Below are positions 43,309 to 62,384 of a DNA stretch of 64,000 bases, piece by piece. Origin of the DNA: Escherichia coli (GTDB lineage: Bacteria; Pseudomonadota; Gammaproteobacteria; Enterobacterales; Enterobacteriaceae); assembly GCF_001677475.2 (NCBI RefSeq), contig NZ_CP015229.1; one strand, 5' to 3'. The first letter of the stretch is position 1. Each line of letters opens with the position of its first letter. The translations under genes were made by a program, and so were the position numbers. The notes under the pieces are model-generated. The model saw only the letters and a list, made by a program, of their open reading frames with translations, was not told the DNA's origin and made no database searches.

Positions 43309-44469
43309 ATGACATCGGAAAACCCGTTACTGGCGCTGCGTGAGAAAATCAGCGCGCTGGATGAAAAATTATTAGCATTACTGGCAGAGCGGCGCGAACT
43401 GGCCGTCGAGGTGGGAAAAGCCAAACTGCTCTCGCATCGCCCGGTACGTGATATTGATCGTGAACGCGATTTGCTGGAAAGATTAATTACGCTCGGTAAA
43501 GCGCACCATCTGGACGCCCATTACATTACTCGCCTGTTCCAGCTCATCATTGAAGATTCCGTATTAACTCAGCAGGCTTTGCTCCAGCAACATCTCAATA
43601 AAATTAATCCACACTCTGCCCGCATTGCTTTTCTCGGCCCCAAAGGCTCCTATTCACATCTTGCCGCTCGTCAGTACGCTGCCCGTCACTTTGAGCAATT
43701 CATTGAAAGTGGCTGCGCCAAATTTGCCGATATTTTTAATCAGGTGGAAACCGGCCAGGCCGACTATGCCGTCGTACCGATTGAAAATACCAGCTCCGGT
43801 GCCATAAACGACGTTTACGATCTGCTGCAACATACCAGTTTGTCGATTGTTGGCGAGATGACGTTAACTATCGACCATTGTTTGTTGGTCTCCGGCACTA
43901 CTGATTTATCCACCATTAATACGGTCTACAGCCATCCGCAGCCATTCCAGCAATGCAGCAAATTCCTTAATCGTTATCCGCACTGGAAAATTGAATATAC
44001 CGAAAGTACGTCTGCGGCAATGGAAAAGGTTGCACAGGCAAAATCACCGCATGTTGCTGCGTTGGGAAGCGAAGCTGGCGGCACTTTGTACGGTTTGCAG
44101 GTACTGGAGCGTATTGAAGCGAATCAGCGACAAAACTTCACCCGATTTGTGGTGTTGGCACGTAAAGCCATTAACGTTTCTGACCAGGTTCCGGCGAAAA
44201 CGACGTTGTTAATGGCGACCGGACAACAAGCTGGTGCGCTGGTTGAAGCATTGCTGGTACTGCGCAACCACAATCTGATTATGACCCGTCTGGAATCACG
44301 CCCGATTCACGGAAACCCGTGGGAAGAGATGTTTTATCTGGATATTCAGGCCAATCTGGAATCAGCGGAAATGCAACAGGCGTTGAAAGAGCTAGGTGAA
44401 ATCACTCGCTCGATGAAAGTCCTGGGCTGTTACCCAAGCGAGAATGTGGTACCAGTCGATCCGGCATAA
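43309..44469 (+). CDS. pheA: bifunctional chorismate mutase / prephenate dehydratase
   Basis: 386 aa from [22 protein letters not shown]; CM, PDT and ACT domains. Confidence 0.96.
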
Positions 44470-44476
44470 TGAAATC

Positions 44477-44504
44477 GTGCCGGGTGAAACACGCCACCCG
44501 GCAC
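44477..44504. terminator. convergent terminator hairpin between pheA and tyrA
   Basis: 10-bp stem GTGCCGGGTG / CACCCGGCAC with 8-nt loop between the two convergent stop codons. Confidence 0.55.
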
Positions 44505-44511
44505 TGGATTA

Positions 44512-45633
44512 TTACTGGCGACTGTCATTCGCCTGACGCAATAACACGCGGCTTTCACTCTGAAAACGCTGTGCGTAATCGCCGAACCAGTGCTCCACCT
44601 TGCGGAAACTGTCAATAAACGCCTGCTTATCGCCCTGCTCCAGCAACTCAATCGCCTCGCCGAAACGCTTATAATAACGTTTGATCAACGCCAGATTACG
44701 CTCTGACGACATAATGATGTCGGCATAAAGCTGCGGATCCTGAGCAAACAGTCGCCCGACCATCGCCAGCTCAAGGCGGTAAATCGGCGAAGAAAGTGCC
44801 AGAAGTTGCTCAAGCTGAACATTTTCTTCTGCCAGGTGCAGCCCATAAGCAAAAGTAGCAAAGTGGCGCAGAGCCTGAATAAACGCCATATTCTGATCGT
44901 GCTCGACGGCGCTAATACGATGCAGTCGAGCGCCCCAGACCTGAATTTGCTCCAGAAACCATTGGTATGCTTCCGGCTTACGTCCATCACACCAGACCAC
45001 AACTTGCTTTGCCAGGCTACCGCTGTCCGGGCCGAACATCGGGTGTAGCCCCAGCACCGGACCATCATGCGCCGCCAGCATGGCCTGTAATGGTCCATTT
45101 TTCACCGATGCCAGATCGACCAGAATACAATCTTTCGGTAAAGGCGGTAATTTGCCAATAACTTGTTCAGTAACGTGGATGGGCACACTAACAATCACCA
45201 TTCCGGCATCGGCAACAATATCAGCCGCTCGATCCCAGTCATGTTGCTCCAGAATCCGCACCTGATAACCCGAGAGTGTCAGCATCTTCTCGAACAGACG
45301 TCCCATCTGACCGCCACCACCGACGATAACCACCGGGCGCAGTGACGGACAAAGCGTTTTAAATCCTTTGTCGTTTTCACTGGAGTAAGATTCACGCATC
45401 ACCCGACGCAAAACATCCTCAATCAGATCTGGCGGTACACCCAGAGCTTCCGCCTCTGCACGACGCGAGGCCAGCATAGATGCCTCGCGCTCCGGAACAT
45501 AAATAGGCAGTCCAAAGCGGCTTTTCACCTCGCCCACTTCAGCAACCAGTTCCAGACGCTTCGCTAATAAATTCAGCAGCGCTTTATCGACTTCATCAAT
45601 TTGATCGCGTAATGCGGTCAACTCAGCAACCAT
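44512..45633 (-). CDS. tyrA: bifunctional chorismate mutase / prephenate dehydrogenase
   Basis: 373 aa from [20 protein letters not shown]. Confidence 0.96.
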
Positions 45634-45643
45634 AATAAACCTC

Positions 45644-46714
45644 TTAAGCCACGCGAGCCGTCAGCTGCCCGTTCAGATCCTGATGAATTTCACGCAGCAA
45701 GGCATCGGTCATTTCCCAACTAATGCAGGCATCGGTTACGGATACACCGTATTTCATTTCACTGCGCGGTTGCTCGGAAGACTGATTGCCCTCGTGGATA
45801 TTACTTTCGATCATCAGACCAATAATTGAGCGATTGCCATCTTTGATTTGAGCAACCACGGATTCTGCCACCGCAGGCTGACGGCGATAATCTTTATTGG
45901 AATTACCGTGGCTGCAATCTACCATCAGAGACGGGCGCAGTCCCGCCTGTTCCATCTCTTTTTCACATTGCGCAACATCCGCAGGGCTATAGTTCGGCGC
46001 TTTACCACCGCGCAGGATGACATGCCCGTCCGGATTCCCCTGAGTTTGTAGCAACGCAACCTGCCCTGCCTGGTTAATGCCAACAAAACGGTGCGGCTGG
46101 GCGGCGGCGCGCATAGCGTTAATTGCTGTTGCCAGACTGCCGTCGGTGCCGTTTTTAAAACCAACCGGCATGGAAAGCCCGGAGGCCATTTCACGGTGAG
46201 TTTGCGATTCCGTTGTACGAGCACCAATTGCTGACCAGCTAAACAGATCGCCCAGGTATTGCGGGCTATTCGGATCTAACGCTTCCGTCGCCAGTGGCAG
46301 TCCCATATTCACCAGCTCAAGCAGCAATTTACGCGCGATCTGCAGCCCGGCTTCTACATCAAAAGAGCCATCCATATGGGGATCGTTAATTAACCCTTTC
46401 CAGCCGACAGTGGTACGGGGTTTTTCAAAATAGACGCGCATTACCAGATAGAGGCTATCGCTGACCTCTGCGGCAAGGGCTTTAAATCGACGAGCATATT
46501 CCAGAGCAGTTTCCGGATCATGAATGGAACAAGGACCACATACTACCAGCAGACGAGGATCGCGCCCGGCGATAATATCTGAAATGGTTTTACGCGAGTC
46601 AGCAATCTGGGCTTCTTGTTGCAGGCTTAATGGAAAAGCTGCCTTCAGTTGTTCCGGAGTCATTAAAACCTGTTCGTCGGTAATATGTACGTTATTCAGC
46701 GCGTCTTTTTGCAT
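45644..46714 (-). CDS. aroF: DAHP synthase, Tyr-sensitive
   Basis: 356 aa from [17 protein letters not shown]; the ORF track's 379-aa form starts upstream in frame. Confidence 0.95.
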
Positions 46715-46809
46715 GATGGCGATCCTGTTTATGCTCGTTTGCGATAGTTGATCCTCAGCGAGGATGACGTAACGATAACACATAAAGTAAAGTTTTCAAT
46801 CCATATTTC

Positions 46810-46878
46810 GTACATTTTTATTTACACAGACAATTTAGCCGCGCTTTCAACCCTTACTTCTGTATAGATAAATTTACA
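46810..46878. promoter_or_regulatory. TyrR boxes of the aroF-tyrA promoter
   Basis: TGTATAgataaaTTTACA at 46861-46878 and GTACATttttatTTACAC at 46810-46827, resembling the TyrR consensus TGTAAA-N6-TTTACA. Confidence 0.6.
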
Positions 46879-46923
46879 CCCCCTTTGAAAACAATCCGCT
46901 ATGCTTTGAAAAAGGAGAAAGAA

Positions 46924-47289
46924 ATGATGAAAAAGTTTATCGCCCCCTTGTTGGCTTTACTGGTTAGCGGATGTCAGATTGATCCTTATACTCACGCGCC
47001 AACCTTGACCAGCACCGACTGGTATGATGTTGGTATGGAAGATGCGATATCGGGCAGCGCCATAAAAGATGACGATGCATTTAGCGATTCACAGGCGGAT
47101 CGCGGTCTATACCTTAAAGGATATGCCGAAGGACAAAAGAAAACTTGCCAGACCGATTTTACTTATGCCCGAGGACTTTCCGGTAAAAGCTTTCCTGCCA
47201 GCTGCAACAATGTTGAAAATGCCAGCCAACTGCATGAAGTATGGCAAAAAGGGGCTGATGAAAATGCCAGCACAATACGATTAAATTAA
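46924..47289 (+). CDS. yfiL: lipoprotein YfiL
   Basis: 121 aa from MMKKFIAPLLALLVSGCQ (lipobox), AAGGAG RBS 8 nt upstream. Confidence 0.88.
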   Translation: MMKKFIAPLLALLVSGCQIDPYTHAPTLTSTDWYDVGMEDAISGSAIKDDDAFSDSQADRGLYLKGYAEGQKKTCQTDFTYARGLSGKSFPASCNNVENASQLHEVWQKGADENASTIRLN

Positions 47290-47438
47290 TTAAAACCCCA
47301 CAAATAAATTAAACATAAGATTTTACTCATTGTGTTTTATTTCTCACATTGATGACGGTCGCATGAAAAAATGATATTTTAATGAGCATTCTGAAAAAAT
47401 ATCGATGCATTTCGAGCGAAGATGGTGGGGATCCCTGA

Positions 47439-47957
47439 ATGCGTTTTTCTCACCGACTGTTCTTACTGCTGATTCTCCTGCTGACGGGAGCACCAATACT
47501 CGCTCAGGAGCCTTCTGACGTTGCGAAAAACGTGCGTATGATGGTTTCCGGTATTGTCAGTTACACCCGCTGGCCTGCGCTATCAGGGCCACCAAAGTTA
47601 TGTATCTTTTCATCTTCACGTTTTAGTACCGCCCTACAAGAGAATGCCGCGACATCTTTGCCTTATCTGCCTGTCATCATTCACACTCAACAAGAGGCGA
47701 TGATTTCAGGCTGCAATGGTTTTTATTTTGGCAACGAGTCACCGACATTCCAGATGGAATTAACCGAACAATATCCGTCAAGGGCGTTATTATTAATTGC
47801 CGAACAAAATACCGAGTGCATTATTGGTAGCGCCTTTTGTCTGATCATCCACAATAATGACGTCAGATTTGCCGTAAACCTGGATGCCTTATCGCGTAGC
47901 GGTGTAAAGGTCAACCCGGATGTCTTAATGCTCGCACGGAAGAAAAATGATGGATAA
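47439..47957 (+). CDS. yfiR: periplasmic repressor of DgcN (YfiR)
   Basis: 172 aa with signal peptide; first gene of the yfiR-dgcN-yfiB operon. Confidence 0.92.
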
Positions 47958-49173
47958 CGATAATTCTCTTAATAAGCGCCCCACGTTTAAAAGAGCATTA
48001 CGCAACATCAGTATGACCAGCATATTTATCACTATGATGCTGATCTGGTTGCTGCTTTCCGTGACCTCGGTGCTGACCCTGAAACAGTACGCGCAAAAAA
48101 ACCTGGCACTGACAGCAGCAACAATGACTTACAGTCTGGAAGCCGCTGTCGTTTTTGCCGATGGCCCTGCAGCAACTGAAACACTGGCAGCGCTGGGCCA
48201 GCAAGGGCAATTTTCAACTGCAGAAGTACGTGATAAGCAGCAAAATATTCTGGCATCCTGGCATTACACCCGTAAGGATCCAGGCGATACTTTCAGCAAT
48301 TTCATAAGCCACTGGCTCTTCCCTGCCCCCATCATTCAGCCGATTCGTCACAATGGTGAAACCATTGGCGAAGTACGCTTAACCGCTCGCGACAGCTCGA
48401 TCAGCCATTTTATCTGGTTTTCGCTCGCTGTCCTGACCGGTTGTATTCTGCTGGCATCAGGCATCGCAATTACCCTCACCCGCCATTTGCACAATGGCCT
48501 GGTGGAAGCGCTGAAAAATATCACCGATGTCGTACATGATGTGCGTTCCAACCGCAATTTTTCCCGACGAGTTTCGGAAGAACGTATCGCTGAGTTTCAC
48601 CGCTTCGCACTCGATTTCAACAGTCTGCTGGATGAAATGGAAGAGTGGCAGCTTCGCTTACAGGCTAAAAATGCGCAGCTGCTACGTACCGCACTACATG
48701 ACCCATTAACCGGGCTGGCGAACCGGGCTGCGTTTCGTAGCGGCATCAACACATTGATGAGCAGTTCCGACGCCCGAAAAACGTCGGCGTTACTATTTCT
48801 TGATGGCGATAATTTCAAATATATCAATGATACCTGGGGTCATGCGACGGGCGATAGAGTCTTGATTGAAATCGCAAAACGGTTAGCTGAATTTGGCGGG
48901 CTGCGACATAAAGCATACCGCCTGGGCGGCGATGAATTCGCTATGGTGCTCTATGATGTACAGTCGGAATCTGAAGTGCAGCAGATATGCTCAGCACTGA
49001 CACAAATCTTTAATCTACCGTTTGATCTTCATAATGGCCATCAGACCACCATGACATTAAGCATTGGTTACGCGATGACCATTGAGCACGCCTCTGCGGA
49101 AAAATTACAAGAGCTTGCCGATCACAATATGTATCAGGCCAAACACCAGCGTGCCGAAAAGCTGGTGAGATAA
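47947..49173 (+). CDS. dgcN: diguanylate cyclase DgcN (YfiN): membrane sensor with HAMP and GGDEF domains
   Basis: 408 aa; two TM segments; GGDEF active site (RLGGDEF). Confidence 0.95.
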
Positions 49174-49188
49174 CAAGGATATATCGAT

Positions 49189-49671
49189 ATGATAAAGCAC
49201 CTGGTAGCACCCCTGATTTTCACCTCACTAATACTGACTGGCTGCCAGTCCCCTCAGGGAAAGTTTACTCCTGAGCAAGTCGCCGCTATGCAATCTTATG
49301 GATTTACTGAATCCGCCGGCGACTGGTCGCTGGGCTTATCAGATGCCATTCTGTTCGCAAAAAATGACTACAAATTGCTCCCGGAAAGCCAGCAACAGAT
49401 CCAAACCATGGCAGCCAAATTGGCCTCGACAGGGCTAACACATGCCCGTATGGATGGACACACCGATAACTATGGTGAAGACAGTTACAACGAAGGCTTA
49501 TCATTGAAACGGGCGAATGTCGTGGCCGATGCATGGGCTATGGGTGGACAAATTCCACGCAGCAATCTCACCACACAGGGTTTAGGAAAAAAATATCCCA
49601 TAGCCAGTAACAAGACCGCCCAGGGCCACGCCGAGAACCGCCGCGTCGCAGTGGTGATTACTACCCCTTAA
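49189..49671 (+). CDS. yfiB: OmpA-family outer-membrane lipoprotein YfiB
   Basis: 160 aa; lipobox LTGCQ; OmpA-like peptidoglycan-binding motif (NRRV). Confidence 0.94.
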   Translation: MIKHLVAPLIFTSLILTGCQSPQGKFTPEQVAAMQSYGFTESAGDWSLGLSDAILFAKNDYKLLPESQQQIQTMAAKLASTGLTHARMDGHTDNYGEDSYNEGLSLKRANVVADAWAMGGQIPRSNLTTQGLGKKYPIASNKTAQGHAENRRVAVVITTP

Positions 49672-49687
49672 AACACGAGCAAACAGA

Positions 49688-49722
49688 TAAAAAAAGGGCC
49701 AGCCAATTGGCCAGCCCTTCTT
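49688..49722 (-). terminator. terminator after rplS (also lies 3' of yfiB)
   Basis: GC-rich imperfect hairpin GGGCCAGCCAATTGGCCAGCCC with a T-run on the minus strand (plus-strand A7). Confidence 0.6.
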
Positions 49723-49747
49723 AACAGGATGTCGCTTAAGCGAAATC

Positions 49748-50098
<351 letters not shown>

Positions 50099-50136
50099 TT
50101 AATCTCTTATCCTGGGTAAACTGATATCTCGGGGGC

Positions 50137-50904
50137 TTACGCCATCCCATCATGTTTATGTTGCTGTTGTGCGTGTTCCGTTTTGAACTCCGCCAGCAAC
50201 CTTGCTTGCTCTTCAGTCAGAGCCAGGTTTTCCAGAAGTTCAGGTCTTCTAAGCCAGGTACGGCCCAGCGACTGTTTCAAACGCCAGCGACGTATCTCGG
50301 CATGGTTGCCCGACAGTAACACTGGCGGAACTTCCATCCCTTCTAACACCTCAGGCCGCGTATAGTGCGGGCAATCCAGCAATCCTTCAGCAAAGGAATC
50401 TTCCGTTGCCGAGGCTTCATGTCCCAGTACTCCCGGAATAAACCGGGAAACGGAGTCAATCAGCGTCATTGCGGGTAACTCACCACCACTGAGAACGTAA
50501 TCGCCGATTGACCATTCTTCGTCAATTTCGGTTTGGATCACGCGCTCATCTATACCTTCGTAGCGACCGCACACCAGAATCAATTTTTGATTCGTTGCCA
50601 GTTCGCTGACGCCCGCTTGATCAAGCTTGCGTCCCTGTGGTGACAGATAAATCACCTTTGCGCCTTCACCCGCCGCGGCTTTTGCTGCATGAATGGCGTC
50701 CCGCAAGGGTTGCACCATCATTAACATCCCCGGTCCGCCGCCGTAAGGACGATCGTCCACGGTACGGTGCCGGTCATGCGTGAAGTCGCGAGGACTCCAG
50801 CTCTGGATGCTCAGCAGGCCATTTTTAACTGCCCGGCCAGTTACCCCGTAATCGGTAATTGCGCGGAACATTTCAGGAAACAGGCTAATTATGCCAATCC
50901 ACAT
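50137..50904 (-). CDS. trmD: tRNA (m1G37) methyltransferase
   Basis: 255 aa from [13 protein letters not shown]. Confidence 0.97.
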
Positions 50905-50934
50905 AGCGCCGTCTTTTACCGTTTATCCGGTGGT

Positions 50935-51483
50935 TTAAAAACCAGGATCCCAATCTACTTCGATTGAACGAGTAGTGAGATCGACTTTCTTGATAACCTG
51001 CCCATCGAGGAACGGTACGAGACGTTCCTTGATACCAAACGCATCTTTCAGGTTTGCCTTAATGACGAGAACATCATTAGATCCGGTTTCCATCATATCG
51101 ACGACTTTACCGAGATCGTAGCCTTCAGTGGTTACTACCTGGCAGCCCATCAGGTCTTTCCAGTAGTAGTCACCCTCTTCAAGCTGAGGCAGCTGCGATG
51201 AATCCACGACAATTTCACAATTCGTCAGCAGGTTCGCCGCATCACGATCGTCAACGCCTTTCAGCTTGATGATCATGTCCTGATTGTGGTGCTTCCAGCT
51301 TTCCAGCTGGACTTGCTGCCACTGACCCGCCTTCTGGATAAACCAGGGCTGATAGTCAAAAATGCTTTCGGCGTCTTCGGTGGAAGAAAACACTCTGAGC
51401 CACCCACGAATACCGTAAGACGAACCCATTTTTCCCAAAACGATGGGATCAACAGGTGCTTGCGCGGTGAGTTGTTTGCTCAT
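50935..51483 (-). CDS. rimM: ribosome maturation factor RimM
   Basis: 182 aa from [20 protein letters not shown]. Confidence 0.95.
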
Positions 51484-51501
51484 CATGACCACCGTGACAG
51501 A

Positions 51502-51828
<327 letters not shown>

Positions 51829-51998
51829 TTACTCATTTTTGCGGAAATTGCAATCAACAGTTGCTAACTCTGCTGTAAAAGGCCGTCGGCGGTGCAGCCA
51901 GTTTGGTGCCGGAGTGCGCGCAGTCACCGGAGCGTACACGCAGTACGTGAGGATGACGAGCACACCCCGGTGCCAAAATGGCAAACAAGCCAGGCCGA

Positions 51999-53360
51999 TT
52001 AGCGACCAGGAAATCCCGGCGGCATCATACCCTTCATGCTTCTCATCATCTTCGCCATTCCGCCCTTCTTCATTTTCTTCATCATGCGCTGCATGTCGTC
52101 GAACTGCTTCAGAAGGCGGTTAACGTCCTGTACCTGCATCCCGCAACCGGCGGCGATACGACGCTTACGCGAACCTTTGATGATTTCTGGCTTAGCGCGC
52201 TCTTTCATCGTCATCGAGTTGATGATGGCTTCCATACGCACCAACACTTTATCGTCCATCTGCGACTTGACGTTATCCGGGATCTGCCCCATGCCCGGCA
52301 GCTTGCCCATCAGGCTAGCCATGCCGCCCATATTTTTCATCTGGCGCAGCTGCTCAAGAAAGTCGTTGAGATCGAAGCCGTCGCCTTTTTTCAGCTTGCT
52401 GGCTAATTTCTCTGCCTGCGCGCGGTCAACTTTGCTTTCGATATCTTCGATCAGTGACAGTACGTCGCCCATGCCGAGAATACGCGACGCGATGCGGTCA
52501 GGATGGAACGGCTCCAGCGCCTCAGTTTTCTCGCCAACACCGAGGAACTTGATCGGTTTGCCAGTGATGTGACGAATAGAGAGCGCCGCACCGCCGCGGG
52601 CATCGCCGTCCACTTTGGTCAACACTACACCGGTAAGCGGTAACGCTTCATTGAATGCTTTTGCCGTATTGGCCGCATCCTGACCGGTCATGGCGTCAAC
52701 CACAAACAGGGTTTCAACCGGATTAATCGACGCATGGACTTGTTTGATCTCATCCATCATCGCTTCGTCAACGTGCAGACGACCAGCGGTATCCACCAGC
52801 AGCACGTCGTAGAATTTCAGTTTGGCTTCTTTCAGCGCCGCGTTAACGATATCTACCGGCTTCTGACCAACATCAGAAGGGAAGAAATCAACGCCCACCT
52901 GCTCTGCCAGCGTCTCAAGCTGTTTGATTGCCGCCGGGCGATAAACGTCGGCGGAAACCACCAGCACTTTCTTCTTGTGCTTCTCGCGCAGGAACTTACC
53001 GAGTTTACCAACGCTGGTTGTTTTACCGGCACCTTGCAGGCCCGCCATCAGCACGACCGCAGGCGGTTGCGCAGCCAGGTTCAGGGTCTGGTTCTCTTCG
53101 CCCATCGCCGCAACCAGTTCGTTACGGACGATTTTGACGAACTCCTGCCCCGGCGTCAGGCTCTTATTAACTTCATGACCAACCGCTTTCTCTTTTACGC
53201 GATTGATAAACTCACGCACTACCGGCAGAGCGACGTCCGCCTCCAGCAGCGCCATGCGCACTTCGCGCAGCGTATCTTTTACGTTGTCTTCAGTGAGGCG
53301 TCCACGGCCACTGATATTGCGCAGCGTGCGCGACAAACGATCGGTTAAATTATCAAACAT
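51999..53360 (-). CDS. ffh: signal recognition particle protein Ffh
   Basis: 453 aa; GTPase motif GLQGAGKTT and Met-rich C-terminal M-domain. Confidence 0.97.
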   Translation of the reverse strand: MFDNLTDRLSRTLRNISGRGRLTEDNVKDTLREVRMALLEADVALPVVREFINRVKEKAVGHEVNKSLTPGQEFVKIVRNELVAAMGEENQTLNLAAQPPAVVLMAGLQGAGKTTSVGKLGKFLREKHKKKVLVVSADVYRPAAIKQLETLAEQVGVDFFPSDVGQKPVDIVNAALKEAKLKFYDVLLVDTAGRLHVDEAMMDEIKQVHASINPVETLFVVDAMTGQDAANTAKAFNEALPLTGVVLTKVDGDARGGAALSIRHITGKPIKFLGVGEKTEALEPFHPDRIASRILGMGDVLSLIEDIESKVDRAQAEKLASKLKKGDGFDLNDFLEQLRQMKNMGGMASLMGKLPGMGQIPDNVKSQMDDKVLVRMEAIINSMTMKERAKPEIIKGSRKRRIAAGCGMQVQDVNRLLKQFDDMQRMMKKMKKGGMAKMMRSMKGMMPPGFPGR

Positions 53361-53526
53361 TGTCTCTCGCCTGGGGTGGAAACGGTTGGCCGCAATCGCG
53401 ACACATCATCAGTATTTTGCCGCAGTATAACATGAAGGCGTCTTTGTTGTTATGCAACGGTTGGAGCAGCGTTCACCTGACGCTATACTGCTTCTCTTTC
53501 TTATTGCTCAAACTGTCGACATTACT

Positions 53527-54318
53527 ATGCCCGTTTTTGCTCTGCTCGCGCTTGTCGCCTACTCCGTCAGTCTTGCGCTGATTGTTCCCGGTCTGCTGCA
53601 AAAAAATGGCGGCTGGCGGCGCATGGCTATTATTTCTGCGGTCATTGCGCTGGTCTGCCACGCAATCGCTCTGGAAGCCCGCATCCTGCCCGACGGTGAT
53701 AGCGGACAAAACCTCAGCCTGCTGAACGTTGGTTCATTGGTCAGTTTGATGATCTGTACGGTAATGACCATTGTGGCTTCTCGCAATCGTGGTTGGTTGC
53801 TGCTACCCATTGTCTATGCCTTTGCGCTTATCAACCTGGCGCTGGCAACCTTCATGCCCAATGAATACATCACCCATCTGGAAGCTACGCCTGGGATGCT
53901 GGTGCACATTGGCTTATCGCTCTTTTCCTATGCCACGCTAATTATCGCCGCCCTGTACGCGCTGCAACTGGCGTGGATTGATTACCAACTGAAGAACAAG
54001 AAGCTGGCGTTTAACCAGGAAATGCCGCCATTAATGAGTATCGAGCGTAAAATGTTCCACATCACGCAGATTGGCGTGGTGCTGCTAACGCTCACGCTTT
54101 GCACTGGCCTGTTCTACATGCACAACTTATTTAGCATGGAAAATATCGACAAGGCTGTGCTCTCTATCGTGGCGTGGTTTGTCTATATTGTGCTGCTGTG
54201 GGGACATTATCATGAAGGATGGCGTGGACGCCGCGTCGTCTGGTTTAACGTTGCGGGTGCAGTCATTCTGACACTGGCCTACTTCGGCAGTCGAATTGTC
54301 CAGCAGTTAATCAGCTAA
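53527..54318 (+). CDS. ypjD: inner-membrane protein YpjD (cytochrome c assembly / CcsA-like family)
   Basis: 263 aa from MPVFALLALVAYSVSLAL; multi-TM profile. Confidence 0.9.
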   Translation: MPVFALLALVAYSVSLALIVPGLLQKNGGWRRMAIISAVIALVCHAIALEARILPDGDSGQNLSLLNVGSLVSLMICTVMTIVASRNRGWLLLPIVYAFALINLALATFMPNEYITHLEATPGMLVHIGLSLFSYATLIIAALYALQLAWIDYQLKNKKLAFNQEMPPLMSIERKMFHITQIGVVLLTLTLCTGLFYMHNLFSMENIDKAVLSIVAWFVYIVLLWGHYHEGWRGRRVVWFNVAGAVILTLAYFGSRIVQQLIS

Positions 54319-54362
54319 ACCCAGAAAAGGAGTTTCCCCTGGAACACATTTCTACTACTACG

Positions 54363-55625
54363 TTGATCATTATTCTGATCATCATGGTGGTCATTTCAGC
54401 CTATTTTTCCGGGTCCGAAACCGGAATGATGACCCTCAACCGCTATCGTCTGCGACATATGGCGAAACAGGGTAATCGCTCGGCCAAACGCGTCGAAAAA
54501 TTGCTGCGTAAGCCAGACCGCCTGATAAGCCTGGTGTTAATCGGCAATAACCTGGTCAATATTCTTGCCTCCGCGCTCGGCACTATTGTTGGGATGCGTT
54601 TGTACGGCGATGCGGGCGTGGCAATTGCGACTGGTGTGCTGACTTTTGTCGTACTGGTTTTTGCTGAGGTATTGCCGAAAACCATTGCCGCGCTGTACCC
54701 GGAAAAAGTCGCTTATCCGAGTAGTTTTCTGCTGGCTCCGCTGCAAATTTTGATGATGCCGCTGGTCTGGTTGCTGAATGCTATCACCCGTATGCTGATG
54801 CGCATGATGGGTATCAAAACCGATATCGTGGTTAGCGGCTCTTTGAGCAAAGAAGAGTTGCGCACTATCGTGCACGAATCACGCTCACAAATTTCCCGTC
54901 GCAATCAGGATATGCTGCTGTCGGTGCTCGATCTGGAAAAAATGACCGTTGATGACATCATGGTGCCGCGCAGTGAAATTATCGGTATTGATATCAACGA
55001 TGACTGGAAATCGATTCTGCGCCAGCTCTCCCACTCACCTCACGGGCGCATCGTGCTCTACCGTGATTCGCTGGACGACGCCATCAGTATGCTGCGTGTG
55101 CGTGAAGCCTGGCGGTTGATGTCGGAGAAAAAAGAGTTCACCAAAGAAACCATGCTACGCGCCGCGGACGAGATCTATTTTGTCCCGGAAGGTACGCCGC
55201 TCAGCACGCAGTTGGTGAAGTTTCAGCGCAACAAAAAGAAAGTCGGCCTGGTCGTCAACGAGTATGGAGACATTCAGGGGCTGGTGACGGTTGAAGATAT
55301 TCTGGAAGAGATTGTCGGCGATTTCACTACCTCGATGTCGCCAACACTTGCCGAAGAGGTCACGCCGCAAAACGACGGTTCGGTGATTATCGATGGCACC
55401 GCCAACGTGCGGGAAATTAACAAAGCCTTTAACTGGCATCTACCGGAAGATGATGCCCGCACGGTTAATGGCGTCATTCTTGAGGCACTGGAAGAGATCC
55501 CTGTCGCAGGCACCCGCGTGCGTATTGGCGAGTACGATATTGATATTCTCGACGTACAGGACAATATGATTAAACAGGTAAAAGTCTTTCCTGTGAAACC
55601 GCTGCGCGAGAGTGTGGCGGAGTAA
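54363..55625 (+). CDS. yfjD: CNNM/CorC-family membrane protein YfjD (DUF21 + CBS pair + CorC_HlyC)
   Basis: 420-aa ORF from TTG 54363; the frame is open upstream to a CTG at 54339, which would give the 428-aa form I recall for K-12; start uncertain. Confidence 0.9.
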   Translation: MIIILIIMVVISAYFSGSETGMMTLNRYRLRHMAKQGNRSAKRVEKLLRKPDRLISLVLIGNNLVNILASALGTIVGMRLYGDAGVAIATGVLTFVVLVFAEVLPKTIAALYPEKVAYPSSFLLAPLQILMMPLVWLLNAITRMLMRMMGIKTDIVVSGSLSKEELRTIVHESRSQISRRNQDMLLSVLDLEKMTVDDIMVPRSEIIGIDINDDWKSILRQLSHSPHGRIVLYRDSLDDAISMLRVREAWRLMSEKKEFTKETMLRAADEIYFVPEGTPLSTQLVKFQRNKKKVGLVVNEYGDIQGLVTVEDILEEIVGDFTTSMSPTLAEEVTPQNDGSVIIDGTANVREINKAFNWHLPEDDARTVNGVILEALEEIPVAGTRVRIGEYDIDILDVQDNMIKQVKVFPVKPLRESVAE

Positions 55626-55709
55626 TACAGTGGCGAACTCCGGTTCGCCTTTCTTATCGCCGCCTTTTAGGATTCCATCAATTCCTTCCTTTTACTTCAC
55701 AATGCAATA

Positions 55710-56351
55710 ATGACATTTCAATTATTCGGAAAGGATATCAATGTTATGTCAGAAGATTATGTAATTGAGTGGGATAAGGATTTTGAAGACGATCTCAACG
55801 TTGTCGCCAGCGTGTTTTTCCCCCACAAGCCAACGCTATGGTCTGGTATCGTCTCTCAACTTGCCACCACTCCTGAAATCTTTGAAGACGAAGATGAGGA
55901 CGAATATGGATTGCAAGACGTTCTCGATTGTAGCGGTGGCGATTTAGGAAATGACGCATTGGGGCAAGCATTTTTACAAATCCTACGCATCGAAGGATTA
56001 ATCCATATTGTTGACTGGAAAGGCGAAGAAGAAGATGGTGAGCTGGCTAATTTTGCTGCTGACCGCTTCTACGATCTGTGTAAAGACCTGACAGCCTCAG
56101 AGACATTACGAAGTCTGCTTATCGACATAACTCAGGAAGATGAAATTGCAGATGCCTGCGAAGATGGTGATCGTTACCTTGACGAGATCTTTGGACGCAT
56201 TCAGGACCAGCTTAATGAACGGGGCTACCAAATTTTCAATCTGAATGAAGGAACAGATAGTTATAACGTGGCCGTTCTGCCAATGAACGAATATAAAAAA
56301 ATAGATGATTTCAACACGCCGTGGCTGGAAGTACAGGATTTTTTAAGCTAA
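55710..56351 (+). CDS. hypothetical highly acidic cytoplasmic protein (no recognised family); ORF sits in the yfjD-grpE spacer
   Basis: Clean 213-codon ORF with no competing frame; likely start ATG 55746 (AAGGA 10 nt upstream, 201 aa); hand count 29 Asp + 22 Glu vs 7 Lys + 6 Arg; no TM segment or signal peptide; appears AT-rich by eye relative to flanking genes. Confidence 0.6.
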   Translation: MTFQLFGKDINVMSEDYVIEWDKDFEDDLNVVASVFFPHKPTLWSGIVSQLATTPEIFEDEDEDEYGLQDVLDCSGGDLGNDALGQAFLQILRIEGLIHIVDWKGEEEDGELANFAADRFYDLCKDLTASETLRSLLIDITQEDEIADACEDGDRYLDEIFGRIQDQLNERGYQIFNLNEGTDSYNVAVLPMNEYKKIDDFNTPWLEVQDFLS

Positions 56352-56377
56352 AAAAATGGCCGACTTCGCGTCGGCCA
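56350..56377 (-). terminator. rho-independent terminator after grpE (bidirectional hairpin shared with the acidic ORF)
   Basis: Hairpin TGGCCGAC-gcgaa-GTCGGCCA followed by a T7 run on the minus strand, 8 nt after the grpE stop. Confidence 0.75.
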
Positions 56378-56385
56378 TCAGATAT

Positions 56386-57009
<624 letters not shown>

Positions 57010-57021
57010 CTAACTTCGCTT

Positions 57022-57050
57022 ATTATGGGGATCAGTTTCAGGGTTTCAAG
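57022..57050 (-). promoter_or_regulatory. sigma-32 heat-shock promoter of grpE
   Basis: Minus strand CTTGAAA - 13 nt - CCCCATAAT, near-consensus sigma-32 promoter. Confidence 0.75.
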
Positions 57051-57098
57051 GGAAGCACTCACATTGTCATCAATCTTCGCAACAAGGACCTCGGAAAA

Positions 57099-57977
57099 AT
57101 GAATAATCATTTCAAGTGTATTGGCATTGTGGGACACCCACGGCACCCCACTGCACTGACAACACATGAAATGCTCTACCGCTGGCTGTGCACAAAAGGT
57201 TACGAGGTCATCGTTGAGCAACAAATCGCTCACGAACTGCAACTGAAGAATGTGAAAACTGGCACGCTCGCGGAGATTGGGCAACAGGCTGATCTCGCGG
57301 TTGTCGTTGGCGGCGACGGTAATATGCTGGGCGCAGCGCGCACACTCGCCCGCTACGACATAAAAGTCATCGGCATCAACCGTGGCAACCTGGGTTTCCT
57401 GACCGACCTTGATCCCGATAACGCCCAGCAACAGTTAGCCGATGTGCTGGAAGGCCACTACATCAGCGAAAAACGTTTTTTGCTGGAAGCGCAAGTCTGT
57501 CAGCAAGATTGCCAGAAACGCATCAGCACGGCGATTAACGAAGTGGTACTTCACCCTGGCAAAGTGGCGCATATGATTGAGTTCGAAGTATATATCGACG
57601 AGATCTTTGCGTTTTCTCAGCGTTCCGATGGCCTGATTATTTCGACGCCAACAGGTTCCACCGCTTATTCCCTCTCAGCGGGAGGTCCGATTCTGACACC
57701 GTCTCTGGATGCGATTACCCTGGTGCCCATGTTCCCGCATACGTTGTCAGCACGACCACTGGTCATAAACAGCAGCAGCACGATCCGTCTGCGTTTTTCG
57801 CATCGCCGTAACGACCTGGAAATCAGTTGCGACAGCCAGATAGCACTGCCTATTCAGGAAGGTGAAGATGTCCTGATTCGTCGCTGTGATTACCATCTGA
57901 ATCTAATTCATCCGAAAGATTACAGTTATTTCAATACATTAAGCACCAAGCTCGGCTGGTCAAAAAAATTATTCTAA
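57099..57977 (+). CDS. nadK: NAD kinase
   Basis: 292 aa; GGDG motif ([14 protein letters not shown]). Confidence 0.96.
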
Positions 57978-57994
57978 TTTTACGCTAGCCTCTT

Positions 57995-58054
57995 TACTGT
58001 ATATAAAACCAGTTTATACTGTACACAATAACAGTAATGGTTTTTCATACAGGA
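57995..58054. promoter_or_regulatory. LexA (SOS) boxes of the recN promoter
   Basis: TACTGTATATAAAACCAGTT (57995-58014), TACTGTACACAATAACAGTA (58017-58036) and a weaker third CTGT..ACAG-like site to 58054; CTGT-N8-ACAG consensus. Confidence 0.75.
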
Positions 58055-58062
58055 AAACAACT

Positions 58063-59724
58063 ATGTTGGCACAACTGACCATCAGCAACTTTGCTATCGT
58101 TCGTGAGCTTGAGATTGATTTTCATAGCGGCATGACCGTAATAACTGGCGAGACCGGCGCGGGTAAATCTATTGCAATAGATGCCCTCGGTCTTTGTCTC
58201 GGTGGTCGCGCTGAAGCCGACATGGTGCGTACCGGCGCTGCTCGCGCTGACCTGTGCGCCCGTTTTTCTCTGAAAGATACGCCAGCGGCTCTGCGCTGGC
58301 TGGAAGAAAACCAGCTTGAAGACGGGCATGAATGTTTGCTTCGTCGCGTAATCAGCAACGATGGTCGCTCACGAGGTTTTATCAACGGTACAGCTGTTCC
58401 TCTGTCACAACTGCGCGAACTGGGTCAGTTGCTCATTCAGATCCATGGTCAGCACGCTCATCAGTTACTCACCAAACCCGAGCACCAAAAATTCCTGCTT
58501 GATGGCTATGCCAATGAAACCTCTCTACTTCAGGAAATGACCGCACGTTATCAGTTGTGGCATCAAAGCTGCCGTGACCTCGCGCATCATCAACAGTTAA
58601 GTCAGGAACGCGCCGCCCGTGCGGAACTGCTGCAATACCAATTAAAAGAACTTAACGAATTTAATCCGCAGCCCGGAGAGTTTGAGCAAATCGACGAAGA
58701 GTACAAACGTCTGGCGAACAGCGGTCAATTGCTGACCACCAGCCAGAATGCATTGGCATTAATGGCCGACGGTGAAGACGCAAACCTGCAAAGTCAGCTT
58801 TACACGGCTAAACAACTGGTGAGCGAATTGATTGGCATGGACAGCAAACTGTCCGGCGTACTTGATATGCTGGAAGAAGCTACCATCCAGATTGCTGAAG
58901 CCAGCGACGAACTGCGCCACTACTGCGATCGTCTGGATCTCGATCCCAACCGACTGTTTGAACTTGAACAGCGCATCTCAAAACAGATTTCGCTGGCACG
59001 TAAACATCACGTCAGCCCTGAGGCATTACCACAGTATTACCAGTCGTTACTGGAAGAACAGCAGCAACTGGACGATCAGGCCGACTCACAAGAAACGCTC
59101 GCGCTGGCGGTAACGAAACATCATCAGCAGGCACTGGAAACCGCGCGCGCATTACATAAACAACGCCAGCAATATGCAGAAGAACTTGCACAGCTGATCA
59201 CCGACAGTATGCATGCGCTCTCAATGCCGCATGGGCAGTTTACGATCGATGTTAAATTTGACGAGCATCACCTGGGCGCTGACGGTGCCGATCGTATTGA
59301 GTTTCGGGTAACCACCAACCCAGGTCAGCCAATGCAGCCTATTGCCAAAGTCGCATCCGGTGGTGAATTGTCCCGCATCGCATTGGCAATCCAGGTCATC
59401 ACGGCGCGTAAAATGGAAACCCCGGCACTGATTTTTGATGAAGTGGATGTAGGGATTAGCGGTCCAACAGCGGCAGTTGTCGGCAAACTGCTGCGTCAAC
59501 TCGGCGAATCAACTCAGGTGATGTGTGTTACCCACCTGCCACAAGTCGCGGGATGTGGTCATCAACACTATTTTGTCAGCAAAGAAACCGATGGTGCGAT
59601 GACAGAAACACACATGCAATCCCTGGATAAAAAAGCGCGGTTACAAGAGCTGGCGCGCCTGCTTGGTGGCAGTGAAGTCACACGTAATACACTGGCGAAT
59701 GCGAAAGAACTGCTTGCGGCGTAA
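58063..59724 (+). CDS. recN: DNA repair protein RecN (SMC-like)
   Basis: 553 aa; Walker A GETGAGKS and C-terminal signature region. Confidence 0.96.
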
Positions 59725-59872
59725 ACTTTTTTCCTGCTTCACGGTCAGAGTAAACAGCAAAACGCCGTAAGACCGGAAAGCAAAAGGTTTTAAAGTGATG
59801 AAAGGTCTATTATCATCGGCATATTACAGATGAGCCACGTACTGCTCGGGCCCGAAAAGGAATCAAATCACT

Positions 59873-60214
59873 ATGCGCTGTAAAACGCTGACTGCTGCAG
59901 CAGCAGTACTATTGATGTTGACCGCAGGCTGTTCCACTCTGGAGCGAGTGGTTTACCGTCCTGACATCAACCAGGGGAACTATCTGACCGCTAACGACGT
60001 ATCCAAAATACGTGTTGGCATGACGCAACAACAAGTTGCGTACGCATTGGGTACACCGCTGATGTCCGATCCATTTGGTACGAATACCTGGTTCTATGTC
60101 TTCCGCCAGCAACCAGGTCATGAAGGTGTAACGCAGCAAACGCTGACGCTGACCTTTAACAGTAGCGGTGTGTTGACCAATATTGATAACAAACCTGCGC
60201 TGAGTGGTAACTAA
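59873..60214 (+). CDS. bamE: outer membrane protein assembly factor BamE (SmpA)
   Basis: 113 aa; lipobox LTAGCS. Confidence 0.95.
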
Positions 60215-60242
60215 TAATAATAAAGTTGCTCTCAAAGACGTT

Positions 60243-60272
60243 AAAAAAGGTGCTCAATGAGCACCTTTTTTC
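60243..60272. terminator. bidirectional terminator between bamE and ratB
   Basis: Hairpin AGGTGCTC-aatg-AGCACCT flanked by an A6 run upstream and a T6 run downstream. Confidence 0.7.
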
Positions 60273-60278
60273 TGTCTG

Positions 60279-60569
60279 TTATTTATTCGCTGATTTTTCT
60301 GCTCGTTGCCTGCGAAGCTCTTTCGGATCGGCAATGAGAGGACGATAAATCTCCACCCGATCGCCATCATGTACAATATCGCTGAGTTTTGCCGGACGGC
60401 TGTAAATGCCGACTTTGTTTTTAGTTAAATCGATATCGGTACGCAATTCCAGCAAGCCACTGGCGCGAATAGCTTCTTCAACCGTCGCGCCCTCCTGCAG
60501 CGTCACGCGCTGCAGATACTGCTTCTCAGGTAGCGCATAAGCCACCTCAACGGCAATTTTACCTGGCAC
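60279..60569 (-). CDS. ratB: UPF0125 protein RatB (YfjF)
   Basis: 96 aa from GTG at 60567-60569 ([20 protein letters not shown]); the ORF track gives a 124-aa upstream-extended form. Confidence 0.85.
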
Positions 60570-61035
60570 TGTAAACCTCTTTCGCACGAACCGTAAAAGC
60601 CTGGACCATATTAGCCGCCAGTTCTTTAAACACGCGGCCAAAGGCGAGTTCAATCAACTTATTGGTAAACTCAAAATCGAGATGAAACTCGATACGGCAC
60701 GCCTCCTGACTCAGCGGCGTAAACTTCCAGCCACCGATCAATTTCTTGAACGGCCCATCCACCAGATTCATAAGAATACTTTGGTTACTGGTTAACTGGT
60801 TGCGGGTAGTAAACGTTTTGCTGATCCCAGCCTTAGAGACATCTACCGCCGCAGTCATCTGCCCAGGAGTGGACTCCAGAATCCGACTTCCGGTACAACC
60901 CGGCAAAAACTGAGGATAAGACTGAACGTCATTCACTAACTGATACATTTGCTCCGCGCTGTAGGGTACCAGTGCGGTCCGGCTAATCTGAGGCATAACA
61001 ATTTCCATCAACAAAAATCCAACAAATAATATCAT
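60559..61035 (-). CDS. ratA: ribosome association toxin RatA (YfjG), SRPBCC/polyketide-cyclase fold
   Basis: 158-aa ORF; overlaps ratB by 11 nt; start could instead be the internal MPQIS Met. Confidence 0.88.
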
Positions 61036-61166
61036 TTATCCTGCTGTAAAAAAAACGCTATCCCGGCGCTGGGTAACATCGGGTTCATGCTAAGATAGAG
61101 CCTTGTCCCCCGCAGGATTGATATGGGGTGTTTTCGATTTCAGATTACCGATGATTCACGACGCTT

Positions 61167-61649
61167 ATGACGAAGAAAAAAGCACATAAACCTGGTTCAG
61201 CGACCATCGCGCTTAACAAGCGCGCCCGTCACGAATACTTTATCGAAGAAGAGTTCGAAGCGGGACTTGCCCTGCAAGGCTGGGAGGTTAAATCCCTGCG
61301 CGCAGGAAAAGCCAATATCAGCGACAGCTACGTCCTTCTGCGTGACGGAGAGGCATTTCTGTTTGGCGCTAACATCACGCCAATGGCTGTGGCCTCCACG
61401 CATGTGGTGTGCGATCCTACCCGTACCCGCAAGTTACTTCTCAACCAGCGCGAACTGGACTCATTGTACGGTCGCGTCAATCGAGAAGGCTATACCGTAG
61501 TGGCGCTCTCCCTGTACTGGAAAAATGCCTGGTGCAAAGTGAAAATCGGCGTCGCCAAAGGTAAGAAACAGCATGATAAACGTTCAGATATCAAAGAACG
61601 CGAATGGCAGGTGGATAAAGCGCGTATCATGAAAAACGCCCACCGTTAA
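61167..61649 (+). CDS. smpB: SsrA-binding protein SmpB
   Basis: 160 aa from [29 protein letters not shown]. Confidence 0.97.
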
Positions 61650-61819
61650 ACCTGCACTGCAATTATTGACCCGCTCCTCACCGCGCCTCCCTCTCCGGCG
61701 GCGCGAATGCACATCTTATTGGCTATCACATCCGACACAAATGTTGCCATCCCATTGCTTAATCGAATAAAAATCAGGCTACATGGGTGCTAAATCTTTA
61801 ACGATAACGCCATTGAGGC

Positions 61820-61850
61820 TGGTCATGGCACTCATGAATCTGGTATACTT
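61820..61850 (+). promoter_or_regulatory. candidate ssrA promoter (extended -10)
   Basis: TGgTATACT at 61841-61849, 7 to 14 nt upstream of the mature tmRNA 5' end; no good -35. Confidence 0.5.
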
Positions 61851-61863
61851 ACCGTTACACATT

Positions 61864-62226
61864 GGGGCTGATTCTGGATTCGACGGGATTTGCGAAACCC
61901 AAGGTGCATGCCGAGGGGCGGTTGGCCTCGTAAAAAGCCGCAAAAAATAGTCGCAAACGACGAAAACTACGCTTTAGCAGCTTAATAACCTGCTTAGAGC
62001 CCTCTCTCCCTAGCCTCCGCTCTTAGGACGGGGATCAAGAGAGGTCAAACCCAAAAGAGATCGCGTGGAAGCCCTGCCTGGGGTTGAAGCGTTAAAACTT
62101 AATCAGGCTAGTTTGTTAGTGGCGTGTCCGTCCGCAGCTGGCAAGCGAATGTAAAGACTGACTAAGCATGTAGTACCGAGGATGTAGGAATTTCGGACGC
62201 GGGTTCAACTCCCGCCAGCTCCACCA
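61864..62226 (+). ncRNA. ssrA: tmRNA (SsrA), 363 nt, ending CCA
   Basis: 5' GGGGCUGAUUCUGGAUUCGACGGG, tag-coding region ...GCAAACGACGAAAACUACGCUUUAGCAGCUUAA, 3' GGGUUCAACUCCCGCCAGCUCCACCA. Confidence 0.97.
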
Positions 62227-62344
62227 CTTTTGATAGGACTGCAACCGGACAGCGGCAATAAAAACAGCCACTTACGGACACTGACCAGACAGTAAGCGGA
62301 CTTAAAAAAGACAAAAATATACACGCAAAATGCACGTGCATTTC

Positions 62345-62384
62345 AAAAAAGCCTCTGATTGTGAAGTCAGAGGCTTTTCTATTT
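62345..62384 (-). terminator. rho-independent terminator downstream of the phage tfa gene, in the ssrA-prophage junction
   Basis: Hairpin GCCTCTGA-cttcacaa-TCAGAGGC followed by TTTTTTG on the minus strand. Confidence 0.7.

Follow-up and report, generated by a model that had tools for sequence, protein, structure and literature searches.

The closest described counterparts of the yfiR-dgcN-yfiB operon are the operon of Escherichia coli K-12 MG1655 (b2603-b2605) and the YfiBNR system of Pseudomonas aeruginosa (cyclase TpbB/PA1120; structures 4zhv, 4zhu, 4zhy, 5eb1, 4iob and 7a7e), which has the same three-protein architecture as the locus described here. The relay of envelope stress through YfiB was established in P. 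aeruginosa (PMC2837407, PMC3375315). The input demonstrated for E. coli is the loss of YfiR when conditions are reducing or DsbA is lacking, DTT or dsbA loss lifting its repression; redox control of DgcN, its GGDEF dependence and its relocation to the Z ring have been shown, the latter upon osmotic or outer-membrane stress and without any effect of a yfiB knockout (PMC4992967). Mutation of E. coli yfiR raises c-di-GMP via DgcN, and a yfiR transposon mutation was enriched in a genome-wide set of high-c-di-GMP mutants, whereas yfiB was not reported as enriched (PMC13031359). Deletion of yfiB in Shigella flexneri reduces biofilm formation, adhesion and invasion (PMC8948675), while Salmonella enterica uses YfiR-YfiN and lacks yfiB, so that the core works without YfiB (PMC4992967). 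The outputs differ as well: P. aeruginosa responds through Pel/Psl and small-colony variants, E. coli through cellulose, motility and cell division. The HmsCDE system of Yersinia pestis, with a YfiR-type repressor and a CHASE8-GGDEF cyclase, is said to represent a core that works with a variant YfiB-like partner.

The mechanism considered here has been shown elsewhere and is carried over by near-identity to the K-12 proteins. YfiR would be exported to the periplasm, stabilised by two disulfides, and would bind the periplasmic CHASE8 domains of the DgcN dimer, keeping the cytoplasmic GGDEF domains inactive. Repression could be lifted either because YfiR misfolds when conditions are reducing or DsbA is deficient, or because it is sequestered by YfiB, a peptidoglycan-bound outer-membrane lipoprotein. 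Free DgcN would then convert two GTP into c-di-GMP, which is expected to increase cellulose production and decrease motility, and under envelope stress E. coli DgcN would move to the Z ring and arrest division. On the strength of this likeness, with protein identity at the 99% level to K-12, where the effects were shown (PMC4992967, PMC13031359), we infer that YfiR represses DgcN in the present strain and that YfiB or reducing conditions lift the repression. An earlier note had called the module a known relay from envelope stress to c-di-GMP; that description holds for P. aeruginosa, whereas in E. coli the demonstrated input is YfiR loss and experiments give a role of YfiB little backing, DgcN relocation being unaffected by the yfiB knockout (PMC4992967). 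The operon type, its components and its mechanism are already known and published, the locus being a standard c-di-GMP module of the core genome.

Layout, conservation and distribution of the operon

The operon lies on the plus strand of the window, the whole 64-kb stretch of E. coli DNA that was analysed, and comprises yfiR (47439-47957; 172 aa), encoding the periplasmic repressor of DgcN, dgcN, also known as yfiN (47947-49173; 408 aa), encoding an inner-membrane diguanylate cyclase, and yfiB (49189-49671; 160 aa), encoding an OmpA/Pal-like outer-membrane lipoprotein. The three genes are tightly linked on one strand in the same arrangement as in K-12: the end of yfiR and the start of dgcN share 11 nt (ATGATGGATAA), and a spacer of 15 nt with an AAGGA Shine-Dalgarno sequence separates dgcN from yfiB. 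The three overlapping or closely spaced genes reported earlier were recovered as open reading frames at exactly these coordinates, and their naming as YfiR, DgcN and YfiB is borne out by Pfam matches, by NCBIfam equivalog matches, which exceed the cut-offs for all three proteins, and by synteny with K-12. The neighbourhood corresponds to K-12 b2600-b2610 (tyrA-aroF / yfiL-yfiR-dgcN-yfiB / rplS-trmD-rimM-rpsP-ffh). Both the positions of the reading frames and the RLGGDEF motif are well past chance expectation.

Gene order, protein lengths, overlap, spacers and flanking genes are all like those of K-12, and comparison of yfiR, dgcN and yfiB with their K-12 counterparts revealed neither a frameshift nor an internal stop. 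The genes are therefore full length, as had been claimed, although fully wild-type function of YfiB is not guaranteed because its R147H substitution affects a near-invariant position. Nucleotide identity to K-12 amounts to 99.6% for yfiR, 98.2% for dgcN and 99.4% for yfiB, and the 740 encoded residues contain five differences: K115R in YfiR, N272S and N273S in DgcN, and V10I and R147H in YfiB. Both internal junctions and the spacer upstream of yfiR are 100% identical to K-12. In dgcN, 22 nucleotide differences from K-12 are found between 48144 and 49017, of which 20 are synonymous and the remainder account for N272S and N273S; compared with loci L003-L006, all 22 nucleotide differences are synonymous and the protein is identical. 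The substitutions in dgcN, overwhelmingly synonymous, indicate purifying selection on this gene.

The 149-nt yfiL-yfiR intergenic region (47290-47438, plus strand) is presumed to contain the promoter and ribosome-binding site of the operon. A consensus promoter scan yielded 6 sites, against 5.7 expected from shuffles, with none on the plus strand of this spacer and none usable upstream of yfiR, and an Rfam scan of 44000-53500 at E-values up to 0.1 returned no RNA family. Between the convergent genes yfiB and rplS lies a G+C-rich hairpin (49691-49722) whose stem measures 14 bp and, on the minus strand, runs into a T-run. Its palindrome on the plus strand follows 19 nt after the yfiB stop codon, and it differs from that of K-12 by one additional A in the A-run. 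The hairpin is likely a shared terminator of both genes.

The locus belongs to the core genome, at least 80% of it being covered in 5,368 of 5,425 complete E. coli genomes. Set against 5,426 complete E. coli genomes, the window reaches an identity of 98.2-99.0% at best, and its dgcN nucleotide haplotype has no full-length match above 98.3% among them. The exact YfiR and DgcN proteins are each found on 1000 or more contigs that bear the label E. coli, and a 61-mer carrying the R115 codon of YfiR has an exact copy in 187 of the 5,370 complete E. coli genomes with a match. The modest best identity had raised the suspicion of a Shigella origin, which is not supported: repeat-copy counts within the 64 kb gave no sign of multi-copy IS elements, and the exact proteins carry the E. 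coli label. The source is best described as an E. coli lineage that has rarely been sampled. Taken as a whole, the locus is, with high confidence, the chromosomal, orthologous E. coli yfiR-dgcN-yfiB operon, intact and under purifying selection, and since yfiB is kept it represents the full three-gene E. coli type, unlike the system in Salmonella.

The repressor YfiR and the cyclase DgcN

YfiR matches the Pfam family DUF4154 (PF13689; E=5e-31) and the NCBIfam equivalog sequest_YfiR (NF053586) with 168 bits at a cut-off of 85. A signal peptide is predicted at about residues 1-22, and the N-terminal hydrophobic segment spans residues 3-25. In phmmer searches the proteins of the window are distant from those of P. 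aeruginosa (E=7e-17 for YfiR, 6e-31 for YfiB and 5e-29 for the GGDEF region of DgcN). YfiR can be aligned to the P. aeruginosa YfiR structures 4yn7, 4zhu and 5y61, and Cys55, Cys92, Cys127 and Cys134 align with the four cysteines found there. P. aeruginosa R171, L166, P178, L181 and R185 correspond to R153, L148, P160, L163 and R167, whereas E163, a contact of YfiB R96 that also belongs to the proposed YfiN site, is replaced by Ala145.

DgcN contains a CHASE8 domain (residues 45-146; E=1e-33) with hydrophobic segments at about 20-46 and 150-179 on either side, followed by a GGDEF domain (residues 249-403; E=3e-43) for which the Pfam model PF00990 was covered from position 1 to 159 of 161 with 147.7 bits; the NCBIfam DgcN/YfiN equivalog (NF007423) scored 503 bits at a cut-off of 325. 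A HAMP domain of YfiN has been described in the literature (PMC4655355), but Pfam HAMP was reported neither for the whole of DgcN nor for the isolated linker between TM2 and GGDEF at E-values up to 10. Residues 169-236 gave weak NCBIfam matches to sensor-kinase linkers (e.g. BaeS, E=6e-4), and a sub-threshold Pfam match to Med29 in the isolated linker was dismissed as spurious.

The catalytic A-site motif RLGGDEF is intact, as the earlier note had stated: it occupies residues 325-331 (codons at 48919-48939, plus strand) and is the same as in TpbB. The other catalytic motifs are kept as well, namely DPLTGL (252), DGDNFK (286), YIND (292), GHATGD (298) and YQAK (396), so that the A-site set of GG(D/E)EF, DxD..FK..ND, GHxxGD, the Arg before GGDEF and YxAK is complete in alignment with TpbB, 5m3c and 4urs. 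Alignment to the TpbB/YfiN GGDEF structures 7a7e and 4iob is likewise possible, and the GGDEF motifs are identical to those of TpbB. The two proteins differ just upstream, where TpbB carries RESD, an RxxD site, and E. coli DgcN has LRHK in a loop two residues shorter; the five residues leading up to GGDEF read KAYRL, with GLRH ahead of them. The RxxD inhibitory site, an optional feature of the GGDEF family located five residues upstream of GGDEF, had been singled out for checking, and none was found across all 408 residues. It is missing from K-12 DgcN alike, and its absence from YfiN/DgcN is the normal state in E. coli rather than a defect (PMC4992967). Because there is no RxxD site, classical product inhibition of DgcN is not expected. 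The YfiR-DgcN core is predicted to be fully functional.

YfiB, its R147H variant and rival readings of the module

YfiB matches Pfam OmpA (PF00691; residues 55-151, E=3e-17) as well as NCBIfam PRK09967 (346 bits, cut-off 155) and OMP_LP_YfiB (NF053585; 228 bits, cut-off 128), and aligns to the P. aeruginosa YfiB structures 4zhv and 5eaz. Its lipobox, LTGC, places the lipobox cysteine at Cys19, also kept from P. aeruginosa YfiB, with the non-Asp residue Gln20 at position +2. The residues of the peptidoglycan site described for P. aeruginosa YfiB (PMC4887326), N68, D102, G105 and R117, align with N59, D93, G96 and R108, which are invariant or nearly so among close orthologs (119-120 of 120). D93 and R108 also align with the diaminopimelate-binding Asp/Arg pair of Pal and OmpA, an OmpA-like feature known as D71/R86 in Pal and D271/R286 in AbOmpA (PMC4887326, PMC12108004). 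Kept too are F39 and W46 of the activation region (F48/W55 in P. aeruginosa) and, at the interface, R87 and E149 (R96/E157).

The exception, not visible to the earlier note, is codon 147 (49627-49629, plus strand), which reads CAC (His) instead of CGC (Arg) within the motif G-R-A-x-N-R-R-V. The Arg of G-R-(A/S)-x-N-R-R-V is a conserved feature of YfiB rather than a published defining one: it is found in this column in 118 of 120 enterobacterial YfiB cluster representatives and in 69 of 73 distant representatives of YfiB size, among which His occurs only once. An exact copy of the 61-mer carrying the H147 codon is present in 3 of 5,424 complete E. coli genomes (~0.06%), and while another member of the YfiB cluster and, as noted above, the exact YfiR and DgcN each occur on 1000 contigs or more, the exact YfiB protein is found on 30. 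Position 147 aligns with R155 of P. aeruginosa YfiB, two residues before E157 (E149 here), which bonds R171 of YfiR (PMC4887326). Since His147 replaces a near-invariant Arg close to an interface residue that faces YfiR, the YfiB input could be weakened or altered, and the operon could be intact with a YfiB arm that constitutes a natural hypomorph or an allele of altered sensitivity. R147H might disturb the OmpA-like fold, the anchoring to peptidoglycan or the nearby YfiR-binding region II, such that sequestration of YfiR and activation of DgcN by envelope stress would be reduced or re-tuned while the redox input through YfiR would still work. The absence of yfiB from Salmonella (PMC4992967) is in keeping with this reading, as is a locus with the same YfiB protein (L009, CP026836.1) in which a frameshift splits dgcN. 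Pal and OmpA, however, both bind peptidoglycan with Tyr (E. coli Pal) or Leu (OmpA) in the aligned column, and Arg to His partly retains the polar, basic character. With the ligand-contacting N59, D93 and R108 intact (PMC4887326) and Pal and OmpA managing without that Arg, the effect of R147H is uncertain, and no role for P. aeruginosa R155 or its equivalents was found in PMC4887326, PMC4655355 or PMC3375315. H147 is moreover carried by two or more yfiB haplotypes, and three complete genomes and several contigs have it beside intact yfiR and dgcN, so that it is tolerated; that it accompanies decay of the module was rejected, the broken dgcN being confined to L009. A hypomorphic or retuned YfiB arm is accordingly possible but doubtful, and the further proposal that R147H is a recurrent natural allele that re-tunes, probably by dampening, the sequestration of YfiR is unlikely.

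A different reading accepts the names of the genes and holds that the physiologically relevant output in E. coli stems from YfiR as a periplasmic redox switch combined with DgcN as a division inhibitor, rather than from an envelope-stress relay driven by YfiB, which would be accessory. The relief of YfiR repression by DTT or dsbA loss and the relocation of DgcN in the yfiB knockout (PMC4992967) point in this direction, as does the enrichment of yfiR, not yfiB, among high-c-di-GMP mutants (PMC13031359). Against it stand the conservation, tight linkage and constraint of E. coli yfiB, the effects of yfiB deletion on biofilm formation, adhesion and invasion in S. flexneri (PMC8948675), and the structurally detailed P. 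aeruginosa mechanism, several interface residues of which are conserved here; we consider this reading a serious one, falling somewhat short of an even chance. Decay or loss of function of the module in this lineage, which would make it a cryptic pseudogene set with open frames, is by comparison highly improbable. Insertions of IS1 or ISApl1 in dgcN of some other E. coli, together with the L009 frameshift, show that dgcN loss occurs in the species, and the lineage is rarely sampled. Yet all three frames are open here and of K-12 length, dgcN substitutions are overwhelmingly synonymous, the regulatory spacers are those of K-12, and no residue needed for catalysis, the disulfides, the lipobox or peptidoglycan binding has been lost. 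The intact operon remains the preferred reading; its YfiB arm is probably functional, though with the rare R147H, and the module is predicted to function with a possibly modulated YfiB input.

Implications for c-di-GMP signalling in E. coli

Beyond correct annotation, the significance of the locus is small. An intact, K-12-like module leads to the expectation that YfiR loss or reductive stress would elicit CsgD-independent cellulose production, lower motility and an arrest of division by DgcN. With R147H, nature supplies an allele through which a highly conserved but unstudied Arg of OmpA-like sensor lipoproteins could be probed. Should the allele indeed re-tune YfiB, the coupling between envelope state and c-di-GMP would differ in a minority of E. 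coli lineages, and the Arg conserved in GRAxNRRV would be functionally important in YfiB-type sensors.

Gene order and identity of the yfi locus

The earlier note described an intact YfiR-DgcN-YfiB module, and that reading is correct: the module is real and already known. The ORF listing of 45000-52000 places yfiR at 47439-47957 (172 aa), dgcN at 47947-49173 (408 aa) and yfiB at 49189-49671 (160 aa), all on the plus strand and exactly where the note had put them, with yfiR and dgcN overlapping by 11 nt (ATGATGGATAA) and dgcN separated from yfiB by a 15-nt gap (CAAGGATATATCGAT) containing an AAGGA ribosome-binding site. The reading frames are intact, and all three ORFs are full length, matching K-12 MG1655. 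Orthology is equally direct, Pfam recovering the right domains in YfiR (DUF4154, YfiR/HmsC-like), DgcN (CHASE8 and GGDEF) and YfiB (OmpA), and every NCBIfam equivalog cut-off being exceeded: sequest_YfiR at 168 bits (cut-off 85), DgcN/YfiN at 503 bits (325), and, for YfiB, PRK09967 at 346 bits (155) and OMP_LP_YfiB at 228 bits (128). Of 5,426 complete E. coli genomes, 5,425 gave a match to the locus in a megablast search with 47300-49750; in 5,368 of these a single place covers at least 80% of the query, always on the chromosome and with the annotation yfiR, dgcN and yfiB. For YfiR and DgcN alike, the exact protein turns up on 1000 or more contigs bearing the label E. coli.

The surrounding gene arrangement is that of K-12 b2600-b2610, the neighbours being tyrA and aroF (minus), yfiL (plus) and rplS-trmD-rimM-rpsP-ffh (minus). 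The DUF2799 lipoprotein gene yfiL (46924-47289), whose product shows no differences from K-12 YfiL, has the same orientation as yfiR and ends 149 nt before it; neither this spacer nor the one between dgcN and yfiB differs from K-12 at any position. The yfiL-yfiR interval shows no plus-strand terminator-like site, and the gap between the convergent genes yfiB and rplS contains a G+C-rich hairpin with a 14-bp stem (49691-49722). An Rfam scan of 44000-53500 gave no match, and promoter-like sites were no more frequent in the scan than in shuffled sequence. The locus is an insertion sequence target in other E. coli, with IS200C between yfiB and rplS, adjoining the terminator hairpin, and IS1 or ISApl1 within dgcN in several complete genomes (records in the compared loci L015, 2801-3259, and L005, 4852-5310, and in the complete-genome matches H13 and H51-H55).

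The diguanylate cyclase and its divergent haplotype

DgcN carries hydrophobic segments at about residues 20-46 and 150-179, either side of CHASE8, and its GGDEF-domain motifs are directly seen to be conserved: DPLTGL (252), DGDNFK (286), YIND (292), GHATGD (298), RLGGDEF (325-331) and YQAK (396) match P. aeruginosa TpbB/YfiN (7a7e, 4iob) and other solved cyclases column by column, bearing out the claim of an intact RLGGDEF. For the inhibitory site, which the earlier note wanted checked, the proper description is "absent, as in all E. coli" and not "damaged": the whole protein lacks an RxxD motif, the place matching RESD of TpbB reads LRHK in a loop two residues shorter, and Kim and Harshey describe E. 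coli YfiN as having no conserved I site (PMC4992967). In the linker, Pfam calls no HAMP domain and NCBIfam gives just weak similarities to sensor-kinase linkers. Residues 17-232 (47995-48642; TM-CHASE8-linker) match NF053592, 'sensor histidine kinase, YfiR-like protein-associated', below its cut-off (81 bits vs 194), and so histidine kinases sharing this sensor module may be further partners of YfiR-type repressors.

The two substitutions relative to K-12, N272S and N273S, lie in a variable loop ahead of the domain's first beta-strand and belong to a very common allele. Selective constraint is directly visible at the nucleotide level, where 20 of the 22 dgcN differences from K-12, all between 48144 and 49017, are synonymous, as are 22 of 22 differences from four other loci (L003-L006) encoding the identical protein; such a nearly all-synonymous pattern marks dgcN as a working gene under purifying selection. 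This stretch stands out as divergent where the rest of the locus resembles K-12 (22 differences in dgcN vs 1 in yfiL, 2 in yfiR and 3 in yfiB), and the full-length dgcN haplotype reaches at most 98.3% identity among the 5,426 complete genomes, which suggests either an allele that has undergone recombination or a lineage that is seldom sampled. Across the window, the best identity to any of these genomes is 98.2-98.4% (1-47300) and 97.4% (49700-64000), so the strain belongs to a lineage thinly covered by complete E. coli genomes.

Near-identical DNA is found in the draft GCA_019138615.1 (contig ABBDHT010000029.1; 1 mismatch in 6,483 nt), and L007 (Logan ERR10434875 contig 220) is 100% identical to 46189-49762. 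From 49762 onward, 15 nt into the rplS 3' end, L007 (3560-6483) departs into AT-rich DNA with genes for a YopA_C-like protein, a phage integrase, YebY and a CI-type repressor, either a prophage integrated beside yfiB/rplS in that strain or an assembly chimera. Further along, coverage by other E. coli genomes falls at 61864-63782, which looks like an ssrA-linked prophage remnant: beyond the ssrA tmRNA gene (61864-62226; tag ANDENYALAA), the minus strand carries a DUF4376 ORF at 62425-62997, where the annotation of matching E. coli genomes places a prophage tail fiber, and a second ORF at 63012-63782 for which Pfam has no match.

Conserved residues of YfiR and YfiB

YfiR has an N-terminal signal sequence of about 22 residues, and Cys 55, 92, 127 and 134 align with all four cysteines of P. 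aeruginosa YfiR; the disulfides of these cysteines underlie the DsbA/redox sensitivity described in E. coli and P. aeruginosa (PMC4992967; PMC3375315). The one difference of YfiR from K-12, K115R, is conservative, at a column that varies (P. aeruginosa has His); among 5,370 complete E. coli genomes with a match, 187 share the exact 61 bases that include the R115 codon. The YfiB-contacting residues of P. aeruginosa YfiR are partly kept in the alignment, R171, L166, P178, L181 and R185 corresponding to R153, L148, P160, L163 and R167, whereas E163 is Ala145 here, as in K-12.

YfiB retains its lipobox (LTG-C19, with Gln at +2), the activation-region residues F39 and W46 (P. aeruginosa F48 and W55), the peptidoglycan-site residues N59, D93, G96 and R108 (N68, D102, G105 and R117) and the interface residues R87 and E149 (R96 and E157). 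It differs from K-12 by V10I and R147H, and the latter (CGC to CAC, 49627-49629) is the sole unusual feature of the locus, its residual curiosity. The Arg column is conserved, in 118 of 120 enterobacterial cluster representatives and 69 of 73 distant YfiB-sized ones (~35-57% identity; His once), and the H147 allele is rare: only 3 of 5,424 complete E. coli genomes share the exact 61-mer spanning it, and the exact protein is on 30 contigs, as against 1000 or more for a different member of the same cluster. The P. aeruginosa counterpart of position 147 is R155 in G-R-S-E-N-R-R-V, two residues ahead of E157, whose bond to YfiR R171 is seen in the crystal structure of the complex (PMC4887326); the main YfiB papers (PMC4887326, PMC4655355, PMC3375315) do not mention the matching residue. 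Counting against a severe effect, the residues touching the diaminopimelate-mimicking sulfate are intact, the aligned column holds Tyr in E. coli Pal and Leu in OmpA, and H147 occurs on two yfiB haplotypes (V10 and I10) and in genomes whose yfiR and dgcN are both intact. We consider a functional consequence of R147H rather unlikely. The identical I10/H147 protein is also encoded in L009 (CP026836.1), where a frameshift splits dgcN (1761-2985) into ORFs of 257 and 140 aa.

Predicted signalling by the module

The YfiB-driven envelope-stress relay has its firmest support in P. aeruginosa; in E. coli, a yfiB knockout leaves the stress relocation of DgcN unaffected (PMC4992967). In Shigella flexneri, yfiB deletion lowers biofilm formation, adhesion and invasion (PMC8948675), and a genome-wide E. 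coli screen lists a yfiR transposon mutation among its high-c-di-GMP hits (PMC13031359). By analogy with the near-identical proteins of the literature (PMC2837407, PMC3375315, PMC4992967), YfiR would hold DgcN repressed in the periplasm until reducing conditions, loss of dsbA or sequestration of YfiR by YfiB released it. The c-di-GMP then made by DgcN would increase cellulose and inhibit motility, and, under envelope stress, would allow DgcN to move to the Z ring.
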